Virus record (IMG/VR): IMGVR_UViG_2513237200_000007
DNA from: a virus
Lineage: Duplodnaviria > Heunggongvirae > Uroviricota > Caudoviricetes
Reading direction: 5' to 3' (one strand)
DNA: 47,685 nt
Position numbers and translations under genes: made by a program. The notes beneath the pieces were generated by a model. That model ran no database searches. It worked only from the letters and a program-made list of their open reading frames with translations, and had not been told where the DNA came from. Positions 1,809-12,050 of this stretch are shown here, piece after piece (position 1 is the stretch's first letter; every line of letters starts with the position of its first letter).

Positions 1809-4286
1809 TTAAGAATCAGCCTGACTCGGGATCAGTTTTTGCCAGATAACTGAAACGTATTTTGCCTGGTAACGGGCGTCATCAAGTGCATTATGGCGCT
1901 CACCTTCGAATGGAATAGCCGTTCTGGCATCGAAGTCTATGGCTTTCCCCAGCTCAACGATTGTGCGTACATCGCGATCGTTGTAGTAACGCCACGGGCA
2001 GGGGATCCCCTGCCGTTCGTATGAACGGCGCAAAATCGTGTTGTCGAAGTTGGCTCCATTTCCCCAAACCTGAACAAAAAATTCACCGGAGTTTTCGTCG
2101 ATAAATTCTCGCAATTGTAACAGTGCATCATCTAACGGGATTTCATCGGTCATAATGGCAGATTGCGCTTCGCGTGATTGCTTAAGCCACCATTTAATGG
2201 TGTCCCGATCAATGACTCCGCCAGCAGTTTCCAGATCGATAGTCTTACTAAATTCCGGTCCCATATCTCCGGTTTGCGGATCGAAAAATATTGCACCTAT
2301 TGAGATGATCGGGGCATCAGGATTTTTTCCCATGGTTTCAAGGTCGATCATTAGATGGTCACACGTCCTGCTGGTGGATGTGATTTCGTGATGACCGTTC
2401 ACCTTAATTGGGTGATCTGCCGTCTCGCCAGTTTCATTATCGCTATTGTGATGCTGATTGCCGCCAGTGTTCTCCTTGTGTGGATGTTCAGCGCCTTCCA
2501 TTTCCTCCGGATCATCTTCCTGAACTTCAACCTGATACTCTTCATCGAATGTTTCTTGGTATGTTGCGTCGCCCATCACCGCGCCACAATCAGGGCAGTT
2601 GCCGCCGCCGGTCTGACCGCAGGCGGTGCAGACTTTTTCCACTTCCTGTTGCGCTACTGGTTCAGGCTGTTTCGTTTCTGGCTCGTTTTGTAACGCATTT
2701 GGACTGTTTTGTTCCGCTTTTTGGTAGTTCCGTTCCGATTCATGCTGGTTCTGGTTCACAGAATCGCGGGTCTGGAGCCCCTTAACCCATTTCGGATCAT
2801 TCGGGTCACTAATCCCTTCAACAAATTCACCACGTGATGCAGCAAGCAACTTATCGGCGTCAGGCTGGCTGATATTGGCTGCCTGCATAATTTTGTTTAC
2901 TTCGTCAGCGGTAACTTTTATCGGCTCTGGTTGTTCTGAATCTTCAGCGGTATCTACATTTTGCGGTAAGCCCGTGTATGTGCCATTTTTTCGGGCAAAA
3001 TATTCTTCTTTTGTGATTTCAGTGGCGCCAGCAGCCAGTGCCTTATCCAGACCAGAGAGTTTGTTTGCGCGACCGTATTTTTCTCCGTCCTTATCTGCGA
3101 AGAGGAAATAGAACGGCCCCTCACGCTCTACAGATGGTTCAGCTTCCGGCGCGGTTTCATTTTTTGGGATATCAGATACCTCAGTTTCCACTGCATCAGT
3201 TTGTGTTTCTGATGACTGGAGAACATCAACAGTGCCCAGGTCTGTTTCTTCATTCTCAAACACGCCCTTTGTCGTCAGGTATTCGCAGATATATTTGTTC
3301 AGTGCTACGGGATCTTTGTGAATGTCGATCGGACGCTCACGGACAAGGCCAAAAATAGTTTGGCGGTCGTAGCGAAGGGCATCAGGCTGTTTGCGCATTG
3401 ATGCCGAGATACGCTTCCAGTCTTCGCGGTCGTTGTCGATAACTTCTTTTTTTGCCCAGCGATGGATGCTGCCGTCAATGTTTCCGGCATCCACATCACT
3501 AGGCCAGAGAGCGTAGGCCAGTTCGTCATCCAGTGTTTTCCATGTCTGCTTGTATTCGCGATGAATGGCAGCAATGACCGGGCTGATTTTTCCTGTTGAA
3601 TTTTCAGTGTACTGTTGATTGGCTCTGGCTCTGGCGCGGGCGAGATCAACAACAGACGTGTATTTTCCGGTTTCCTTGCGTTCACCTTCGCGACGTTTTT
3701 TCCAGATGCGCATCTCTGCCTGAATTTCGGGCCATTTAGCACCAGGAATACATTTATGCTTAACCCACCCAATGGCGTGCAACTTAAGCTCCGGATACAT
3801 GGCGTTAACTTCTGGCATTTTCATCAACGCTTCAACGATATGTCCGTCGAATGTTGCCATGTCTTCCTGCAACAATTCCTGTGCGCTAATAACCATATCA
3901 ACGGTGATGTTTTCACATGTGTCGAACTTAACCATGACAGCGTTCTGTACTTCAGGGGCCAGCTTGTCAAAAGTGACGTTCATCGGATCGGATTCAGTCT
4001 CAACCGGGACAAAAGAAGCAGACTCCTCATCCCAGCGGTTTTCCTGCATATATTCAGCATCCCATGAATCGAGGGCAGGGCGGGGTATGCCAGGTTTATC
4101 CTCGCAGACAATAAATTTATAAGCGCAGTCCTGAGCAGCCGGATAATGTTCCAGGAATTGCCAGTGAAATTTTGCTCGAGCACGGCGTTCGTCGCCAGCT
4201 TCAATGGCTGTGGCTACAGCCACAGCGCCTTCTTCCCTTGTTGCCAGTTCGTCAGGAATAGCGGCGCAAATAAAGACTTTACTCAT
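1809..4286 (-). CDS. RecE-like exonuclease (exodeoxyribonuclease VIII-like) with C-terminal DEDDh 3'-5' exonuclease domain
   Basis: Start taken at MSKVF (ATG 4284-4286) rather than track start 4322. C-terminus has DnaQ-like motifs (MIDLETMG ... WGNGANFD ... HNALDDA); central CxxC...CxxC zinc finger (CTACGQTGGGNCPDCG); acidic linker. Appears to be the intact form of the gene that is fragmentary (ydfE) in K-12 Qin. Confidence 0.8.
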   Translation of the reverse strand: MSKVFICAAIPDELATREEGAVAVATAIEAGDERRARAKFHWQFLEHYPAAQDCAYKFIVCEDKPGIPRPALDSWDAEYMQENRWDEESASFVPVETESDPMNVTFDKLAPEVQNAVMVKFDTCENITVDMVISAQELLQEDMATFDGHIVEALMKMPEVNAMYPELKLHAIGWVKHKCIPGAKWPEIQAEMRIWKKRREGERKETGKYTSVVDLARARARANQQYTENSTGKISPVIAAIHREYKQTWKTLDDELAYALWPSDVDAGNIDGSIHRWAKKEVIDNDREDWKRISASMRKQPDALRYDRQTIFGLVRERPIDIHKDPVALNKYICEYLTTKGVFENEETDLGTVDVLQSSETQTDAVETEVSDIPKNETAPEAEPSVEREGPFYFLFADKDGEKYGRANKLSGLDKALAAGATEITKEEYFARKNGTYTGLPQNVDTAEDSEQPEPIKVTADEVNKIMQAANISQPDADKLLAASRGEFVEGISDPNDPKWVKGLQTRDSVNQNQHESERNYQKAEQNSPNALQNEPETKQPEPVAQQEVEKVCTACGQTGGGNCPDCGAVMGDATYQETFDEEYQVEVQEDDPEEMEGAEHPHKENTGGNQHHNSDNETGETADHPIKVNGHHEITSTSRTCDHLMIDLETMGKNPDAPIISIGAIFFDPQTGDMGPEFSKTIDLETAGGVIDRDTIKWWLKQSREAQSAIMTDEIPLDDALLQLREFIDENSGEFFVQVWGNGANFDNTILRRSYERQGIPCPWRYYNDRDVRTIVELGKAIDFDARTAIPFEGERHNALDDARYQAKYVSVIWQKLIPSQADS

Positions 4287-5856: not shown

Positions 5857-6022
5857 GCTGACCTCATTTCCCCTTAACGCTGGGGTAGCGGAACTGTTTG
5901 CTGAGAACACCGTGCGGTGTGTTGATGCAAACAAGATTAGCCATGACTAACATATCGGTCAAGTGATTTTGTATGCTATAGCTAACATAATTGATGTGGT
6001 AAAAGATAACTCATTGATGATG

Positions 6023-6430
6023 TTATCTTTTATTTGTCCGCTGACGGGCTTTTAGTAATTCTTCAAAGAGTTTATTGAAGTTTTTTACTCGAGCTCGCAT
6101 TTCGGCGAGCTGGGTATCCTGTTCTGATTCTGGCAGTGCATTAAACAGCTCAAGGAGCTCTAGTTCTTTGGGGGATAAGGCAACTGGCTTCTCAACAGGT
6201 GGTGTTGGTTGCTTGTCTTCATCGCCAAATAGAATCCATGTTGGTGAGCATTGCAATACTTTGCTGAGGGCAAAAAGGTTCTTCCCTGTAGGTTCACTAT
6301 CACCCCGTTCCCATTGTGATACAGACACATGGGAGATTTTCAGGGCTTTAGCAAGAGACCTTTGGGTGTGTTTGAGGTTTTTCCGACGATACCTGATGCG
6401 TTCGCCGATAGTTAAATTTTTTGTTTCCAT
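6023..6430 (-). CDS. dicA: HTH (XRE/cI-like) repressor DicA
   Basis: 135 aa, METKNLTIGERIRYRRKNLKHTQRSLAKALKISHVSVSQWERGDSEPTGKNLFALSKVL... with clear HTH_XRE motif; divergent from dicC. Confidence 0.85.
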   Translation of the reverse strand: METKNLTIGERIRYRRKNLKHTQRSLAKALKISHVSVSQWERGDSEPTGKNLFALSKVLQCSPTWILFGDEDKQPTPPVEKPVALSPKELELLELFNALPESEQDTQLAEMRARVKNFNKLFEELLKARQRTNKR

Positions 6431-6513
6431 AGTTAGCTAATGCTAAATCGTATTGACTATGTTTTTGTTAACATCTATCTTGTTAGTTATGACTAACAAT
6501 AAAGGTGTTTTAA
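6431..6513. promoter_or_regulatory. divergent dicA/dicC promoter-operator region
   Basis: 83-bp intergenic between divergently transcribed repressor genes; contains palindromes TTAGCTAA, GTTAAC and GTTAGTTATGACTAAC typical of repressor operators. Confidence 0.5.
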
Positions 6514-6744
6514 ATGCTTAAAACTGACGCTCTTTTGTATTTCGGTTCAAAAACAAAACTTGCACAAGCAGCAGGTATTCGTTTGGCTTCGCTTTATAGC
6601 TGGAAAGGGGATTTAGTTCCCGAAGGTCGCGCGATGCGTCTACAGGAGGCATCTGGCGGGGAGCTTCAGTATGATCCCAAAGTTTATGATGAATATCGTA
6701 AGACGAAGCGGGCGGGGCGGTTGAACAATGAAAATCACTCCTGA
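6514..6744 (+). CDS. dicC: Cro-like regulator DicC
   Basis: 76 aa, MLKTDALLYFGSKTKLAQAAGIRLASLYSWKGDLVPEGRAMRLQEASGG...; divergent partner of dicA. Confidence 0.8.
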   Translation: MLKTDALLYFGSKTKLAQAAGIRLASLYSWKGDLVPEGRAMRLQEASGGELQYDPKVYDEYRKTKRAGRLNNENHS

Positions 6745-7249
6745 ACAGGCTCGTGAGGCTCTGGATGCCTGGATATGTCGACCAGGAATGACACAGGAGC
6801 AGGCGACGATATTAATCACTGAAGCATTCTGGGCTTTGAAAGAGCGCCCGAACATCGATGTTCAGCGTGTCACATATGAAGGTGGCGCGATTGATCAGCG
6901 AGCGCTTGGCGTTAATCGAGTGAAGATATTTGAACGCTGGAAGGCTATCGACACCAGGGATAAGCGTGAAAAGTTCACGGCGCTAGTGCCTGCAATTATG
7001 GAGGCTATCCGGATTAATGATTTCAGGTTGTATCGTGAAATTACTGACGGAAAAAGCATCACGTGCATGATCGCCGGGTTAAACAAAGAATATGGCGATG
7101 TGGTGGAGTCCGGACTGCTTTTTGCTGATCCTGCCGTAGTGGATCGTGAAACTGACGAACTTATAGAAAAAGCAATTGCTTTCAAACTTGCGTATCGACA
7201 GCAATACCAACAAAAAGCTGGATGGAATTATGAGCCTTCTTTTTGCTGA
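6728..7249 (+). CDS. YdfX-like protein (intact form; CII-position regulatory or YdaT-like protein)
   Basis: 173-aa ORF overlapping dicC end by 17 nt; N-terminus MKITPEQAREALDAWICRPGMTQEQ... resembles the ydfX fragment of K-12 Qin as I recall it; function not established. Confidence 0.55.
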   Translation: MKITPEQAREALDAWICRPGMTQEQATILITEAFWALKERPNIDVQRVTYEGGAIDQRALGVNRVKIFERWKAIDTRDKREKFTALVPAIMEAIRINDFRLYREITDGKSITCMIAGLNKEYGDVVESGLLFADPAVVDRETDELIEKAIAFKLAYRQQYQQKAGWNYEPSFC

Positions 7250-8195
7250 ACGCCCACTGGTTATAAACACGCAGCTGGCAATGAAAATTGGCTTAAACGA
7301 AGCCATTGTTTTGCAACAACTGCACTACTGGTTGAGAGATACCAACTCCGGCATGGAATGTGATGGTGTTCGCTGGATTTATAACACAACGGAACAATGG
7401 CTGGAACAGTTCCCATTCTGGTCAGAGTCAACGTTAAAGCGCGCGTTTGCAAGTCTGAAAACGCTGGGGCTTTTGCGTTGTGAAAAGCTCAATAAATCAA
7501 AGCGCGATATGACCAATTTCTACACGATCAACTATGGGAGCGAGCTTTTAGATGGTGGCAAATTGAGCGAATCCATCGGTTCAAAATGCGCCGCTCCATC
7601 AGGTCAAAATGACACGATGGAAGAGGTCAAAATGAAACGCTCCATTGGTTCAAAACGACCCAATGTCATCGGGTCAAAATGGCCTGATGATCTTACAGAG
7701 AATACAACAGAGATTACTACAGAGAATAAAAACACTTTTCGTCCGGAAGCTTCGCAACCGGACCCGCAGACGACTGAACAGGATTTTTTAACCCGGAACT
7801 CCGACGCGGTTGTGTTTAGTGCGAAAAAACGCCAGTGGGGTAGCAGGGAGGATTTGGCGTGTGCGCAGTGGATCTGGGGGCGGATCGTGGGTCTCTACGA
7901 ACAGGCAGCCAGTGATGATGGCGAGATCATGCGACCAAAAGAGCCTAACTGGACTGCCTGGGCCAATGACGTGCGCACAATGCGGATGCTGGATGGCAGA
8001 AGCCACAGACAAATTTGCGAAATGTTTGGTCGGGTTCAGCGAGATCCATTCTGGGTAAAAAACATCATGAGCCCGTCAAAGCTCCGCGAAAAATGGGACG
8101 AACTGGTCATCCGCCTGGGACGTTCACCTGTACAGCGTTGTGTTAATCATATTTCTGAACCGGATACAGAAATTCCGCCTGGTTTCAGAGGATAA
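7230..8195 (+). CDS. phage replication initiation protein (O-like, N-terminal DNA-binding domain)
   Basis: Start at MSLLFAERPLVINTQLAMKIGLNEAIVLQQLHYWL (ATG 7230); contains an internal iteron array at the DNA level, as lambda O contains ori. Confidence 0.65.
   Translation: MSLLFAERPLVINTQLAMKIGLNEAIVLQQLHYWLRDTNSGMECDGVRWIYNTTEQWLEQFPFWSESTLKRAFASLKTLGLLRCEKLNKSKRDMTNFYTINYGSELLDGGKLSESIGSKCAAPSGQNDTMEEVKMKRSIGSKRPNVIGSKWPDDLTENTTEITTENKNTFRPEASQPDPQTTEQDFLTRNSDAVVFSAKKRQWGSREDLACAQWIWGRIVGLYEQAASDDGEIMRPKEPNWTAWANDVRTMRMLDGRSHRQICEMFGRVQRDPFWVKNIMSPSKLREKWDELVIRLGRSPVQRCVNHISEPDTEIPPGFRG
7571..7681 (+). repeat. five direct iterons with about 23-bp periodicity inside the replication gene, followed by an AT-rich stretch (putative ori)
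   Basis: Cores GGTTCAAAATG (7578), GGTCAAAATG (7602), GGTCAAAATG (7625), GGTTCAAAACG (7648), GGGTCAAAATG (7671); followed by AT-rich 7683-7745. Confidence 0.6.
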
Positions 8196-8235
8196 GTGTT
8201 GATTTCAGGTCATGAGGTAATTTTAAGGGGGACTT

Positions 8236-8658
8236 GTGGCAAAAGTTTTTACACAAGAAGAGCGGGAAAAAATTAAATGGCAGGTGGTGGAACTCGTGCG
8301 CCAGAGCGGCCGTGAGACGTTACGGCAACTGGAAGCTAAAACAGGTGCGACTAGATATCTGATGAGCGTTCTTGCCAGAGAGCTGGTAGCCAGTGGCGAT
8401 GTATACAACTCCGGCTACGGGTTATTCCCCTCTGAACAGGCGCGTAAGGACTGGCAAAACGCCCGCAAAAAACTCTCGAGGGCAAAGGTGAAGAAACCTG
8501 CTGTGGTTGATCCGGACCTTATCTGGTCATCACCTGACGGAGAAATACGTCGCTACGACAGTCGCCTAAACATAATCTGTCGCGAGTGCCGGAAGAGCGA
8601 AGTTATGCAGCGCATACTGGCTTTCTATCAGGGTAATTTTCAGGACGTGGCGCAGTGA
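8236..8658 (+). CDS. hypothetical protein (GTG start), translationally coupled to the downstream methyltransferase remnant
   Basis: 140-aa ORF with strong SD AAGGGGG 4-5 nt upstream of GTG 8236; stop overlaps the GTG of the next ORF (GTGA). No recognisable motif beyond a C-terminal CxxC. Confidence 0.5.
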   Translation: MAKVFTQEEREKIKWQVVELVRQSGRETLRQLEAKTGATRYLMSVLARELVASGDVYNSGYGLFPSEQARKDWQNARKKLSRAKVKKPAVVDPDLIWSSPDGEIRRYDSRLNIICRECRKSEVMQRILAFYQGNFQDVAQ

Positions 8659-9101
8659 GTGCACCGGCAACCATTCTTGATATGTGCTGTGGCAGCCGCA
8701 TGTTCTGGTTCGATAAGTCTGACGAACGGGCGATATTCAGCGATATCAGAAAAGAAGGATACACATTACGCAATGGGAGACGCTTGATTATCAGCCCTGA
8801 CATTATCGCAGATTTTCGTGCATTATCATTTGCAGACGCATCTTTTTCGATGGTTGTATTAGACCCTCCGCATCTTGAGAGTGTTGGTGATAACGCCTGG
8901 ATGGGAAAGAAATATGGACGGCTGAATAAAGATGCCTGGCGTGATGATTCGCGACAGAGATTTAAAGAAGCCTTTCGGGTGTTGAGGCCGCACGGCGTTC
9001 TGATTTTTTAATGGAATGAAACGCAAATACCGGTAAGCCAGATTCTGGCACTGACAGACAGAAAACCTGTTATCTGTCAACGAACAGGGAAAAAACGATA
9101 A
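8655..9101 (+). pseudogene. DNA methyltransferase remnant, truncated by in-frame TAA at 9009-9011
   Basis: N-terminal SAM-binding-like LDMCCGSR and catalytic-like VLDPPH motifs within 118 aa, then TAA; frame stays open a further 29 codons to the stop at 9099-9101; too short for a functional MTase. Confidence 0.45.
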
Positions 9102-10599: not shown

Positions 10600-12050
10600 C
10601 TATTGTTAACACCAAGCTGTAATGTCCCCTTTGAACCATTCTAAAATGTCCCCAGACAATTCTCTCGTGGATTTTTCATGATCAAAGAGACTGTTACGAT
10701 GAGTCATAAGGAACTCCACCGACTTCAGATTATTCAGGAACAAGCTGCGGCACGCATTGGCATTTCTATTCGGCAGGTTAAACGTCTGGTGCAACGGTAT
10801 AGAAATGAAGGGCCTTCTGGTCTGGTTTCCCACCGACGTGGAAAGCGTCCTAATAATTCCTTTTCTACTGAATTCAGAGCAACAGTAATTTCACTCCTCA
10901 AAGGCCGTTACGCTGATTTTGGACCTACGTTTGCGTGCGAAAAATTGCGCGAGATACACGGTTTATCTTTATCCGTTGAAACTCTCAGAAAGTGGATGAT
11001 AGAAGAGGGGTTATGGCGTGAACGCCGTCGTAAAATTGCCCGTATATATCAACGCCGCATGCGACGACCATCTTACGGTGAACTGATCCAGATTGATGGC
11101 TCACCTCATGACTGGTTTGAAAATCGAGGCCCCAGATGTACACTGATCGTTTTCATTGATGATGCCACCAGTGCGTTGATGGCGTTGCGTTTTGTGCCTG
11201 CTGAAACAACCCGGGCTTACATGGAAACCCTCCGGGGTTACCTTAATGATCATGGCGTACCGCTCGCTCTCTACTCTGATAGACACAGTATATTCAGGGT
11301 AAATAACCCAGAGCGGGAAGGTGAGCTGACCCAGTTCACTCGTGCGATAAAGACACTGGGCATCGAGCCAATCCATGCCAACAGCCCGCAGGCAAAAGGG
11401 CGGGTAGAGCGCGCCAATCAGACACTACAGGACAGGCTGGTCAAAGAAATGCGGCTTCAGAATATCAGTGATATTGAAACAGCAAATGCATGGTTGCCGA
11501 CCTTTATTGAAGCCTATAACAACCGGTTCGCTACGTCGCCTCGTACTACTGATAATGCTCATCTTGATGTGCACCATTCTGAAGAGGAACTGGGTTATAT
11601 CTTCAGCCTACAGGCGAAGCGCGTTCTGTCTAAAAATCTCACTTTCCAGTACAAAAGCAGTGCGTTTCAGGTACGCAGTGAGGGCCGGGGATATCGACTT
11701 AGGCATTCGGTTGTTACTGTATGCGAGAACTTTGACGGTGAAATTAACGTTCTGTATGACGGGAAAGCGCTGGGCTGGGAAAAGTATGTTGATGGCCCGG
11801 AGCCTATACCACTGGATGATGAAAAGAGTGTCCATGAACGAGTGGATAATGCCCGTATTGATTTACGCTCAAAATACTATGTTAAACCTAAAGCTGACCA
11901 TCCCTGGCTTACGCGCCGAACGCAAAGTCATCAGCAAGTTAAGCCCCCGAAGTTACCTAAAAAGAAGCCTGATCCCGATAAAAAAGATTGAAACCAAGAT
12001 CGATTCGGTTGAGTGCATATCCATTCATAGGGTAGATTCTTAAGTCGCGT
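10600..12050 (+). mobile_element. insertion sequence carrying an rve-type DDE transposase (IS481/ISNCY-like); ends not resolved
   Basis: Single transposase ORF with flanking non-coding sequence, lying where K-12 Qin has only pseudogenes; I could not identify terminal inverted repeats by eye, so coordinates are approximate. Confidence 0.35.
10678..11991 (+). CDS. DDE transposase with N-terminal HTH and retroviral-integrase-like (rve) catalytic core
   Basis: 437 aa; N-terminal HTH (HRLQIIQEQAAARIGISIRQVKRLVQRY), catalytic D (IQIDGSPHDWF), D (YSDRHSIF), E (KGRVERANQTLQDRL). Possible alternative start at MSHKEL (10699). Confidence 0.8.
   Translation: MIKETVTMSHKELHRLQIIQEQAAARIGISIRQVKRLVQRYRNEGPSGLVSHRRGKRPNNSFSTEFRATVISLLKGRYADFGPTFACEKLREIHGLSLSVETLRKWMIEEGLWRERRRKIARIYQRRMRRPSYGELIQIDGSPHDWFENRGPRCTLIVFIDDATSALMALRFVPAETTRAYMETLRGYLNDHGVPLALYSDRHSIFRVNNPEREGELTQFTRAIKTLGIEPIHANSPQAKGRVERANQTLQDRLVKEMRLQNISDIETANAWLPTFIEAYNNRFATSPRTTDNAHLDVHHSEEELGYIFSLQAKRVLSKNLTFQYKSSAFQVRSEGRGYRLRHSVVTVCENFDGEINVLYDGKALGWEKYVDGPEPIPLDDEKSVHERVDNARIDLRSKYYVKPKADHPWLTRRTQSHQQVKPPKLPKKKPDPDKKD

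Follow-up and report, generated by a model that had tools for sequence, protein, structure and literature searches.

The segment at positions 7551-7735 of the virus record IMGVR_UViG_2513237200_000007 (hereafter the window, meaning the whole 47.7-kb stretch of DNA that was analysed) is very probably the vegetative (theta-type) replication origin of a DicA/Qin-type lambdoid prophage, located inside the gene of its own initiator, an O-like protein of 321 residues encoded at 7230-8195. This segment consists of an array of 23-nt repeats (iterons) followed by a block of three 12-nt repeats (12-mers). An origin in the style of phage lambda, with intragenic iterons and then an AT-rich region, had been proposed in the original prediction, and all the sequence-level tests run support it. 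The evidence that carries this reading is of several kinds. The repeats are far above chance and in register, the constraint on them acts on the DNA, the units show dyad symmetry, and their arms change in complementary fashion among homologues. The same architecture recurs across two phyla, and residue 67 of the initiator tracks the base that flanks the iteron centre. The gene is assigned to a PHROG family of initiators and holds a C-terminus of the lambda O type, and lambda has its origin at the same place in O. In addition, the 12-mers are the stability minimum of the open reading frame (ORF), the residues encoded by the origin are modelled as disordered, and deposited phages carry a gene 100% or 98% identical to this one.

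The iteron array is made up of the following units:

7551-7573, plus strand: iteron unit 0, GGTGGCAAATTGAGC, degenerate, with the centre CAAATTG at 7559-7565, in the 23-bp register.
7574-7596, plus strand: iteron unit 1, CATCGGTTCAAAATGCGCCGCTC, read as IGSK.
7597-7619, plus strand: iteron unit 2, CATCAGGTCAAAATGACACGATG, read as SGQN, self-complementary at 16 of 23 positions.
7620-7642, plus strand: iteron unit 3, GAAGAGGTCAAAATGAAACGCTC, read as EVKM.
7643-7665, plus strand: iteron unit 4, CATTGGTTCAAAACGACCCAATG, read as IGSK, self-complementary at 16 of 23 positions.
7667-7689, plus strand: iteron unit 5, CATCGGGTCAAAATGGCCTGATG, read as IGSK, self-complementary at 16 of 23 positions and the closest to the palindromic consensus.

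Five direct repeats with a regular spacing of 23-24 bp had been predicted, and these are borne out by a repeat finder (five good copies at 7574-7689, with start-to-start distances of 23, 23, 23, and 24), by Tandem Repeats Finder (period 23), and by core counts against shuffled sequences. The core GKTCAAAAYG occurs six times in the window versus 0.73 expected from the shuffles, the largest of which held 3, and five of these six cores lie at 7579-7681, with a single one elsewhere. The limits of the array required a correction: the five units stand, but the start at 7571 does not, since a degenerate sixth unit, recognized from its register and from the homologues, moves it to ~7551. The array then comprises six 23-nt units at 7551-7689, five good and one degenerate upstream, spaced by 23, 23, 23, 23, and 24 bp. 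The counterpart of this degenerate unit is a good GAGGTCAAAGTGA site in the homologues L003, L004, and L095-L100. The best units are palindromes around an A-tract, with the consensus CATCnGGTCAAAATGnCCnGATG, which is matched twice in the window and never in the shuffles.

The repeats had also been held to encode a reiterated IGSK motif, which proves to be true only of units 1, 4, and 5. The other two frames are used for units 2 and 3, with the core in codon phases 1, 0, 2, 1, and 1 from unit 1 to unit 5, so that IGSK is only what the DNA repeat yields as a by-product in one frame out of three. The possibility that the repeats are the mere DNA shadow of a repeated and conserved peptide, with no role in cis, had been raised beforehand, and it is extremely improbable. 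Three of the five good units do read IGSK, and the 12-mers always lie in one frame, giving TExT repeats, as this explanation would have it. However, a period of 23 bp is not a multiple of 3, so the array is not a peptide repeat, and its core is read in three frames. Moreover, every good unit is palindromic, which a peptide repeat does not need, and one plasmid lineage, described below, holds iterons and 12-mers outside any initiator ORF.

The comparison of codon positions, made as mean pairwise identity among ten homologues with N-terminal domains 73-100% identical, points in the same direction. In the N-terminal domain, the identities at codon positions 1, 2, and 3 are 0.88, 0.94, and 0.56, the usual signature of protein selection, whereas in the iteron array they are 0.84, 0.87, and 0.80, with third positions conserved like the first and second. 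In the 12-mers the values are 0.96, 0.75, and 0.94; here the synonymous positions are fixed, and the position that varies (position 8) is one that alters the amino acid. This conservation of third positions in both the array and the 12-mers indicates that the constraint in the origin segment acts on nucleotides. At the protein level, the array and the 12-mers encode residues 108-167, between the N-terminal domain (modelled at 14-100) and the C-terminal domain (183-295), and residues 86-177 are modelled as disordered between both folded domains (AlphaFold2, mean predicted local distance difference test, pLDDT, of 55). This fits with a predicted disordered linker, the sequence of which would be dictated by the DNA.

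Directly after the array, the following elements are found, the 12-mers being reported by both the repeat finder and Tandem Repeats Finder:

7690-7735, plus strand: AT-rich block with three tandem 12-mers, GC content 0.30, encoding TENT-TEIT-TENK.
7695-7706, plus strand: first 12-mer, ACAGAGAATACA.
7707-7718, plus strand: second 12-mer, ACAGAGATTACT.
7719-7730, plus strand: third 12-mer, ACAGAGAATAAA.

The AT-rich stretch predicted to follow the repeats is real (GC content 0.33 at 7680-7739) and holds the 3 x 12-nt block ACAGAGAWTACW at 7695-7730. This block is the least stable 40-nt duplex in the ORF (-44.3 versus a window mean of -55.6 kcal/mol), and its duplex instability is within the top 1.5% of the window. 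The first 12-mer starts 17 or 20 nt past the start of the last iteron centre, a distance that is constant among homologues. Because of this stability minimum next to the iterons, the block is presumed to be a DNA-unwinding element, which is the most economical reading, although it does not explain why the exact sequence is frozen across phyla and initiator families. A by-eye look for DnaA boxes, DnaA-trios, IHF sites, and primase trinucleotides in the 12-mers yielded nothing convincing.

This freezing is considerable. The consensus from 159 units is w-A-C-A-G-A-G-A-n-T-A-C-w, in which CAGAGA and the T are invariant. Codons were counted in the 12-mers of 62 genes, with runs picked by the peptide pattern only. 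The glutamate codon is GAG in 177 cases and GAA in 1, versus 816 GAA and 578 GAG in the rest of the same genes, and the first threonine codon is ACA in 141 cases and ACT in 1, versus a share of 21% for ACA elsewhere. In a subset of mostly Bacillota genes, GAG prevails in the 12-mers by 61:1, though GAA is preferred 2:1 in the rest of those genes.

The 12-mers are not exclusive to this initiator. An exact-pattern scan of viral contigs gave at least 120 matches, and among the 80 loci inspected, 38 hold the N-terminal domain of the window protein alone, 18 hold a second type alone, 2 hold both, and 22 hold neither. The second type is that of the phage Stx1_14040 'O' gene, the non-lambda 'O' of some Stx phages. 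The iterons immediately upstream of the 12-mers differ from locus to locus, and the 12-mers accompany at least three unrelated groups of initiator N-terminal domains. A query with a 42-nt block recovered 89 phage records, from hosts that include Escherichia, Klebsiella, Pantoea, Erwinia, Acinetobacter, Burkholderia, Xanthomonas, Bacillus, Staphylococcus, and Geobacillus; among the matches listed, the block always lies inside one annotated gene, mostly named as a replication initiator (O-like, DnaD-like, or primosomal).

The exception to this coding context is the pBSG3 group of 8.4-kb Bacillus plasmids, which are near-identical and represent one independent case. They carry three CCTACAGGGAAA repeats with a 22-bp spacing, followed by three ATTACAGAGATTAC units, in a segment (730-850 of NC_014104.1) that holds no initiator ORF, with stop codons 26 codons upstream in the TEIT frame. 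Iterons and 12-mers of the pBSG3 type are found in B. amyloliquefaciens and B. velezensis plasmids, upstream of a gene annotated as 'protein rep'. A prophage initiator could act in trans on this segment, which would then be a fragment of an origin, or the segment may be a relic; as one independent case, it shows the module retained outside a coding context.

The fixed synonymous codons, the many initiator groups, and the non-coding plasmid case argue that the 12-mers are a DNA element. It can be proposed, as a tentative idea that is more doubtful than the origin itself, that wACAGAGAnTACw would be a sequence-specific, cis-acting origin module of many unrelated phage initiators in Proteobacteria and Bacillota rather than a generic melting site, placed at a fixed short distance past the iterons that each local initiator recognizes. 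If so, some factor shared by all these hosts or replisomes would read the 12-mers, probably in single-stranded form or while the helicase is loaded or priming takes place. As a related part of this idea, initiators with the DnaT-like P-x-G-F-R-G tail (see below) would connect directly to the host primosome and need no helicase loader from the phage. The 12-mer is conserved in phages of very distant bacteria, and no prior description of it, nor any paper naming the iteron or the TEITTE or TENTTE peptides, was found in a literature coverage that is incomplete and leaves out most subscription journals.

A different explanation for the 12-mer block only would be that it acts as a shared junction for recombining origin-binding modules with helicase-recruiting ones, or as a conserved linker peptide. 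The position of the block coincides exactly with the point at which homologues exchange partners: C-terminal domains of the lambda O type, Phg_2220_C, or DnaB_2 occur joined to one and the same N-terminal domain, different N-terminal domains carry the same 12-mers, and these are always in frame. This explanation is nevertheless unlikely, given that the conservation spans phyla of very different codon usage (the 61:1 and 2:1 ratios above), that the distance to the last iteron is fixed, that the 12-mers are the stability minimum of the gene, and that they are retained beside iterons in non-coding plasmid DNA. The junction and unwinding roles are compatible with each other.

A further element is found past the 12-mers:

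7741-7763, plus strand: degenerate palindrome GTCCGGAAGC-TTC-GCAACCGGAC, in which 8 of 10 arm positions pair, read directly from the sequence.

The repeat finder (seed 6) did not report this palindrome. Most Enterobacterales homologues hold a well-formed palindrome, GTC[AC]GGTTGCnnnGCAACC[AC]GAC, 13-22 nt past the last 12-mer. It reads GTCAGGTTGCnnnGCAACCAGAC, one copy being at 2994-3016 of L005, and the window copy is a degenerate version. In lambda, an inverted repeat with 12-nt arms, 92% complementary, occupies the equivalent position to the right of the AT-rich region (1263-1290 of the lambda locus L171).

The comparison among homologues was based on diverse loci from a profile scan of genome contigs, as a scan of viral contigs with the N-terminal domain alignment gave only near-identical E. 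coli copies. The order of N-terminal domain, iterons (period of 21-24 bp), and 12-mers is kept in all the close homologues and in most of the distant ones, in Escherichia, Klebsiella, Pantoea, Erwinia, Pseudomonas, Acinetobacter, Staphylococcus, Geobacillus, and Lactobacillaceae. The array of a Staphylococcus phage is almost base-for-base that of the window over ~45 nt. Across the homologues, the iteron centre is kept as CAAAATG or CAAATTG, and the arms change as complementary pairs, distributed as follows:

Arms ggt..acc: Escherichia, Klebsiella, Xenorhabdus, Staphylococcus.
Arms ggg..ccc and gtg..cac: Pantoea, Erwinia, Pseudomonas, Acinetobacter.
Arms gat..atc: Limosilactobacillus.
Arms tat..ata: locus L166 (labelled Nocardioides).
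Arms gtt..aac and gct..agc: Geobacillus, Anoxybacillus.

At each of the six arm positions, complementarity exceeds the mean of the shuffles, and at four of them it equals or exceeds the largest of 2000 shuffles. Two observations on particular homologues can be added here. Several loci from Neobacillus and Bacillus (L140, L146, L147, L152, L163, L167, and L170) hold homologues of the N-terminal domain with no intragenic array or 12-mers, and the origins of these, if any, would lie elsewhere. In Shigella flexneri (L157, CP182557.1, ~3300-3370), the homologous frame closes after ~127 codons, and the A-tract of iteron 1 is longer by one A (TTCAAAAATG versus TTCAAAATG in the window); this insertion would be a frameshift that makes the gene a pseudogene.

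In a set of 73 distinct N-terminal domains, nearly all the information on the base next to the iteron centre (1.04 of 1.08 bits of mutual information) is found at one alignment position, residue 67, which lies where a predicted helix (66-78) begins. S is paired with T in 48 cases, D with G in 14, K with A in 2, and N with C in 2, in counts that ignore shared ancestry. Such a pairing is what is expected if the N-terminal domain reads the iterons, and it makes S67 a candidate specificity determinant. Exchanging S67 for D67 should switch iteron recognition, the predicted shift in preference for S67D being from GGTCAAAATGACC to GGGCAAATTGCCC.

Palindrome arrays are also typical of operators, partition sites, and pac sites, and the binding of the O-like protein to the iterons is a prediction. 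The repeats might then be the sites of another protein (a DicA/Cro-type or YdaT/CII-like regulator, or a host factor) with a role in regulation, partition, or packaging. This is very unlikely, because the array travels with the N-terminal domain of the initiator into phages of Staphylococcus, Geobacillus, and Pseudomonas that do not have this immunity region, and its sequence tracks residue 67 of that domain. In addition, the core is found only once elsewhere in the window, and the array occupies the position of lambda's origin, the gene around it sharing homology with lambda O in its C-terminal half.

The initiator itself, assigned to phrog_391 ('replication initiation O-like') at E 1.1e-91, is chimeric. 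An N-terminal domain resembling a winged helix is followed by a linker that the origin encodes, then by a C-terminal domain of the lambda O type, and finally by a DnaT-like tail:

7230-7550, plus strand: N-terminal domain, residues 1-107, predicted winged helix, presumed to bind the iterons.
7785-8114, plus strand: C-terminal domain, residues 186-295, homologous to the lambda O C-terminal domain.
8130-8192, plus strand: C-terminal tail, residues 301-321, VQRCVNHISEPDTEIPPGFRG-COOH, similar to the very C-terminal end of E. coli DnaT.

The description of this gene as O-like is right for its C-terminal half and not for its N-terminal domain. In the C-terminal half, residues 147-294 align by BLASTP with residues 135-270 of lambda O (34% identity, E 1e-26), in an alignment that begins at the last iteron, and the C-terminal domain is helical in the model (pLDDT 70-85). 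In the N-terminal half, the same search found no similarity to lambda O. The protein matches no Pfam family even at E<=1, neither PF04492 nor PF06970 among them, whereas lambda O, used as a control, matches Phage_rep_O (PF04492) at E 5.7e-36. Based on sequence, the C-terminal domain belongs to the lambda O family, and the N-terminal domain to neither the lambda O nor the RepA_N family. The protein has 4280 relatives at E<=1e-5; among the matches listed, nearly all the named ones are a 'hypothetical protein'.

The N-terminal domain is modelled by AlphaFold2 as H-H-b-b-H-H-b-b over residues 14-100 (pLDDT 60-77). The best Foldseek matches in the PDB are 4pql and 5kbj, the N-terminal domain of the staphylococcal plasmid RepA without and with DNA, which are weak (E 0.016-0.03, with a template-modelling score of 0.47 relative to the target). 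Phages of Klebsiella, Pantoea, Pseudomonas, Erwinia, and Staphylococcus carry versions of this domain with 50-77% identity, and it is also present in prophages of many Enterobacterales, Pseudomonas, Acinetobacter, Bacillaceae, Staphylococcus, and Lactobacillaceae. It is joined to DnaB_2 (DnaD-like) in a Staphylococcus phage and to Phg_2220_C in a Pantoea phage.

The end of the protein, ...SEPDTEIPPGFRG-COOH, is nearly identical to that of DnaT, the last 17 residues being VNHISEPDTEIPPGFRG versus VNTVSEPDSQIPPGFRG in DnaT, both at the chain end. A search of PDB sequences retrieved the DnaT chains 2ru8, 6aep, and 9zbt (E 0.013-0.044), with an end-to-end alignment of the last 21 residues. The DnaT equivalog of NCBIfam is matched only at positions 160-179 of 179 (E 0.006), with 16.2 bits, far below the cut-off of 201, and the label 'Primosomal protein I' on phage homologues probably derives from the tail alone. 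A P-x-G-F-[RK] end, allowing up to four additional residues, is seen again in relatives whose C-terminal domain is different. Many Enterobacterales homologues terminate in P-x-G-F-[RK] tails, such as L003, L004, L005, L096, L097, L110, L113, and L117.

The tail is related to the genes found downstream. Among the 77 loci with enough downstream sequence, homologues of DnaB, DnaC/IstB-like proteins, primase-helicases, or lambda P within 3 kb were found at none of the 22 tailed loci versus 30 of the 55 tail-less ones (Fisher 1.5e-6, uncorrected for ancestry). Detection relied on BLASTP against reference helicases and loaders from the loci, a Walker-A regular expression having been dropped after missing a DnaB-like gene at L009. 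In L099 and L101, which hold the same N-terminal domain and another C-terminal end, a lambda P homologue comes next. In the window, no P, DnaC, or DnaB-type gene was found after the initiator (8196-9100). The next gene codes for a DUF977 protein, which has only a 20-residue stretch in common with lambda Ren; from this stretch and the gene order, it would occupy the ren position, and there is no P position. The whole genome of phage HannyBb holds no annotated helicase, helicase loader, or primase, its exonuclease being the sole annotated replication gene. The initiator thus looks like a one-gene replication module. As judged from sequence, and with modest confidence, the DnaT-like tail may replace a phage-encoded loader by contacting a component of the host primosome. 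No statement on the role of the DnaT C-terminal tail was found in PMC13377028 and PMC4132743.

Other tails are observed in the Bacillaceae homologues (L133-L170), many of which end in acidic-aromatic sequences such as EEDFxLDD or DFRFDDET. Most of the Bacillota homologues with these tails, although not all, are then followed by a DnaB-like helicase gene. The acidic-aromatic tails may represent another family of C-terminal partner-binding motifs.

On these grounds, a mechanism of origin firing can be suggested. Derepression of the prophage would allow rightward transcription and the synthesis of the O-like protein, whose N-terminal winged-helix domains would bind as dimers to the palindromic 23-nt iterons at 7551-7689. 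Judging from lambda, the occupied array would wrap into a complex similar to the O-some, a step for which the A-tract and the 23-bp spacing can be read from the sequence. On supercoiled DNA, the resulting strain would open the 12-mer block at 7690-7735, where the instability is computed and the opening is predicted. Finally, in what is the least certain step, the C-terminal part of the protein would bring in the host helicase, and the DnaT-like tail is the best candidate for the contact, as the phage encodes no P, DnaC, or DnaB homologue.

The origin lies in an almost complete E. coli lambdoid prophage, whose gene order, from left to right, comprises the integrase and exonuclease, then immunity and replication, and then ORFs for the terminase and of tape-measure and tail-fibre size. 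The stretch at 6000-9100 is 100% identical to several E. coli chromosomes, such as that of ATCC 8739 (where the repressor is annotated as dicA), and of 5426 complete E. coli genomes, 411 contain at least 80% of this 3.1-kb region. No known RNA family was found at 5900-9100. The neighbouring features are as follows:

6023-6430, minus strand: dicA-like repressor gene.
6453-6481, plus strand: promoter-like site TTGACT-17-TATCTT from a consensus scan, between the divergent dicA-like and cro-like genes.
6514-6744: P22-Cro-like gene.
6728-7249: YdaT/CII-like gene.
7230-8195, plus strand: O-like replication initiator gene, 321 residues, phrog_391.
8236-8658: DUF977 gene.
8655-9011: methyltransferase gene that looks truncated, matching part of a PHROG profile only.
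10678-11991: insertion sequence (IS) transposase gene, a 437-residue ORF with helix-turn-helix and rve (integrase core) domains, an insertion on the downstream side of the replication module.

The site at 6453-6481 is presumed, on weak evidence, to be a pR-type promoter from which a transcript would run through the origin.

Several points weigh against the interpretation of the 7551-7735 region as an origin. The literature searched yielded no experiment on this element or its protein. The structural model is of low confidence (mean pLDDT 55) and its fold matches are weak (E 0.016-0.03), and the co-variation counts carry no correction for shared ancestry. Some members of the family, several Neobacillus prophages among them, hold neither iterons nor 12-mers in the gene. 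Promoter-like sites are as numerous in the consensus scan as expected from shuffles, so the presumed promoter is no better than chance, and the helicase would have to be loaded with no phage loader. Finally, the IS insertion downstream means that the whole prophage may be defective even with its origin intact.

This last point leads to the alternative that the element is an inactive relic, an origin that no longer fires in a defective prophage. The IS transposase gene and the truncated methyltransferase gene next to the module agree with it, and the Shigella flexneri copy (L157), whose frame closes early, is a case of a disrupted homologue. This alternative is improbable, since the initiator gene and its origin match those of phage PhiR42_1 at 100% identity and those of HannyBb at 98%, with an intact ORF, and a working origin is possible even in a defective prophage. 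The gene is also 97% identical to that of mEp460_ev081; it is annotated as 'DNA replication protein O' in PhiR42_1, 'replication initiation O-like protein' in HannyBb, and 'Primosomal protein I' in mEp460_ev081.

An origin inside an O-like gene is the layout that phage biologists would expect, and by itself it mainly fills an annotation gap: the gene is a 'hypothetical protein' in most E. coli records and belongs to no Pfam family, despite the presence of the 3.1-kb region in 411 of 5426 genomes. The 12-mers, on the other hand, offer a handle on the opening and priming of phage origins and a simple signature for finding origins in new genomes. From the tail it could be learned how the host helicase is recruited by a one-gene module, and the unexplained C-terminus of DnaT may become clearer as well.

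The closest of the known systems in overall architecture is ori-lambda. In lambda-type origins, iterons and an AT-rich tract lie in the central part of gene O (PMC7466680; PMC3349717). With ori-lambda and its O protein, including the Stx variants with six iterons, the window shares an origin in the middle of the initiator gene, made up of four to six imperfect palindromes with a central A-tract every 20-24 bp (20, 24, and 23 bp in the lambda record) and then an AT-rich tract, with an inverted repeat to its right. The C-terminal domain of O (34% identity, E 1e-26) and the gene order of repressor, cro, cII-like gene, initiator, and a gene at the ren position are also common to both. However, the N-terminal DNA-binding domains are unrelated by sequence (lambda O matches PF04492 and the window protein does not), the iteron is GGTCAAAATGACC in the window and TCCCTCAAAACGAGGGA in lambda, the AT-rich part consists of three 12-mers of exact period instead of an A-rich tract, and the window has no P gene and holds a DnaT-like tail instead of the lambda O C-terminus. 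The likeness to DnaT of E. coli is limited to this extreme C-terminus, the rest of the window protein being unlike it.

With regard to unwinding elements, the 12-mers resemble the 13-mers of oriC-type origins and the repeats of iteron plasmids in being short tandem repeats of fixed period and low duplex stability beside the initiator array. The unwinding repeats of oriC and RK2 are bound as single strands by their initiators, and, to our knowledge, the unwinding repeats described so far are specific to their replicon family. The 12-mers differ from the oriC-type elements in their period of 12, in that ACAGAGAnTAC is only moderately AT-rich, and in being conserved across phyla and initiator groups.

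The remaining comparison is with the RepA_N initiators of Bacillota plasmids (pSK41, pTZ2162, and pAD1) and the Vibrio PLE RepA. In RepA_N plasmids, the coding sequence of repA likewise contains the iterons. PMC8129170 makes no statement on where RepA_N origins lie. RepA_N iterons are described as semi-palindromic direct repeats with inverted halves converging on a poly-A tract (PMC7145576), a description that the CATCnGGTCAAAATGnCCnGATG units of the window fit. The best matches of the model, weak as they are (4pql and 5kbj, E 0.016-0.03), come from this family, and the two-domain design, with a conserved DNA-binding N-terminus and a swappable, host-specific C-terminus, is common to both (PMC7145576 for RepA_N). 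Unlike these initiators, the window protein has no PF06970 match at E<=1 and belongs to a temperate phage, not to a plasmid. In the layout of its iterons and in its probable DNA-binding fold, the system is closer to the RepA_N plasmid initiators, while the overall architecture is that of ori-lambda.

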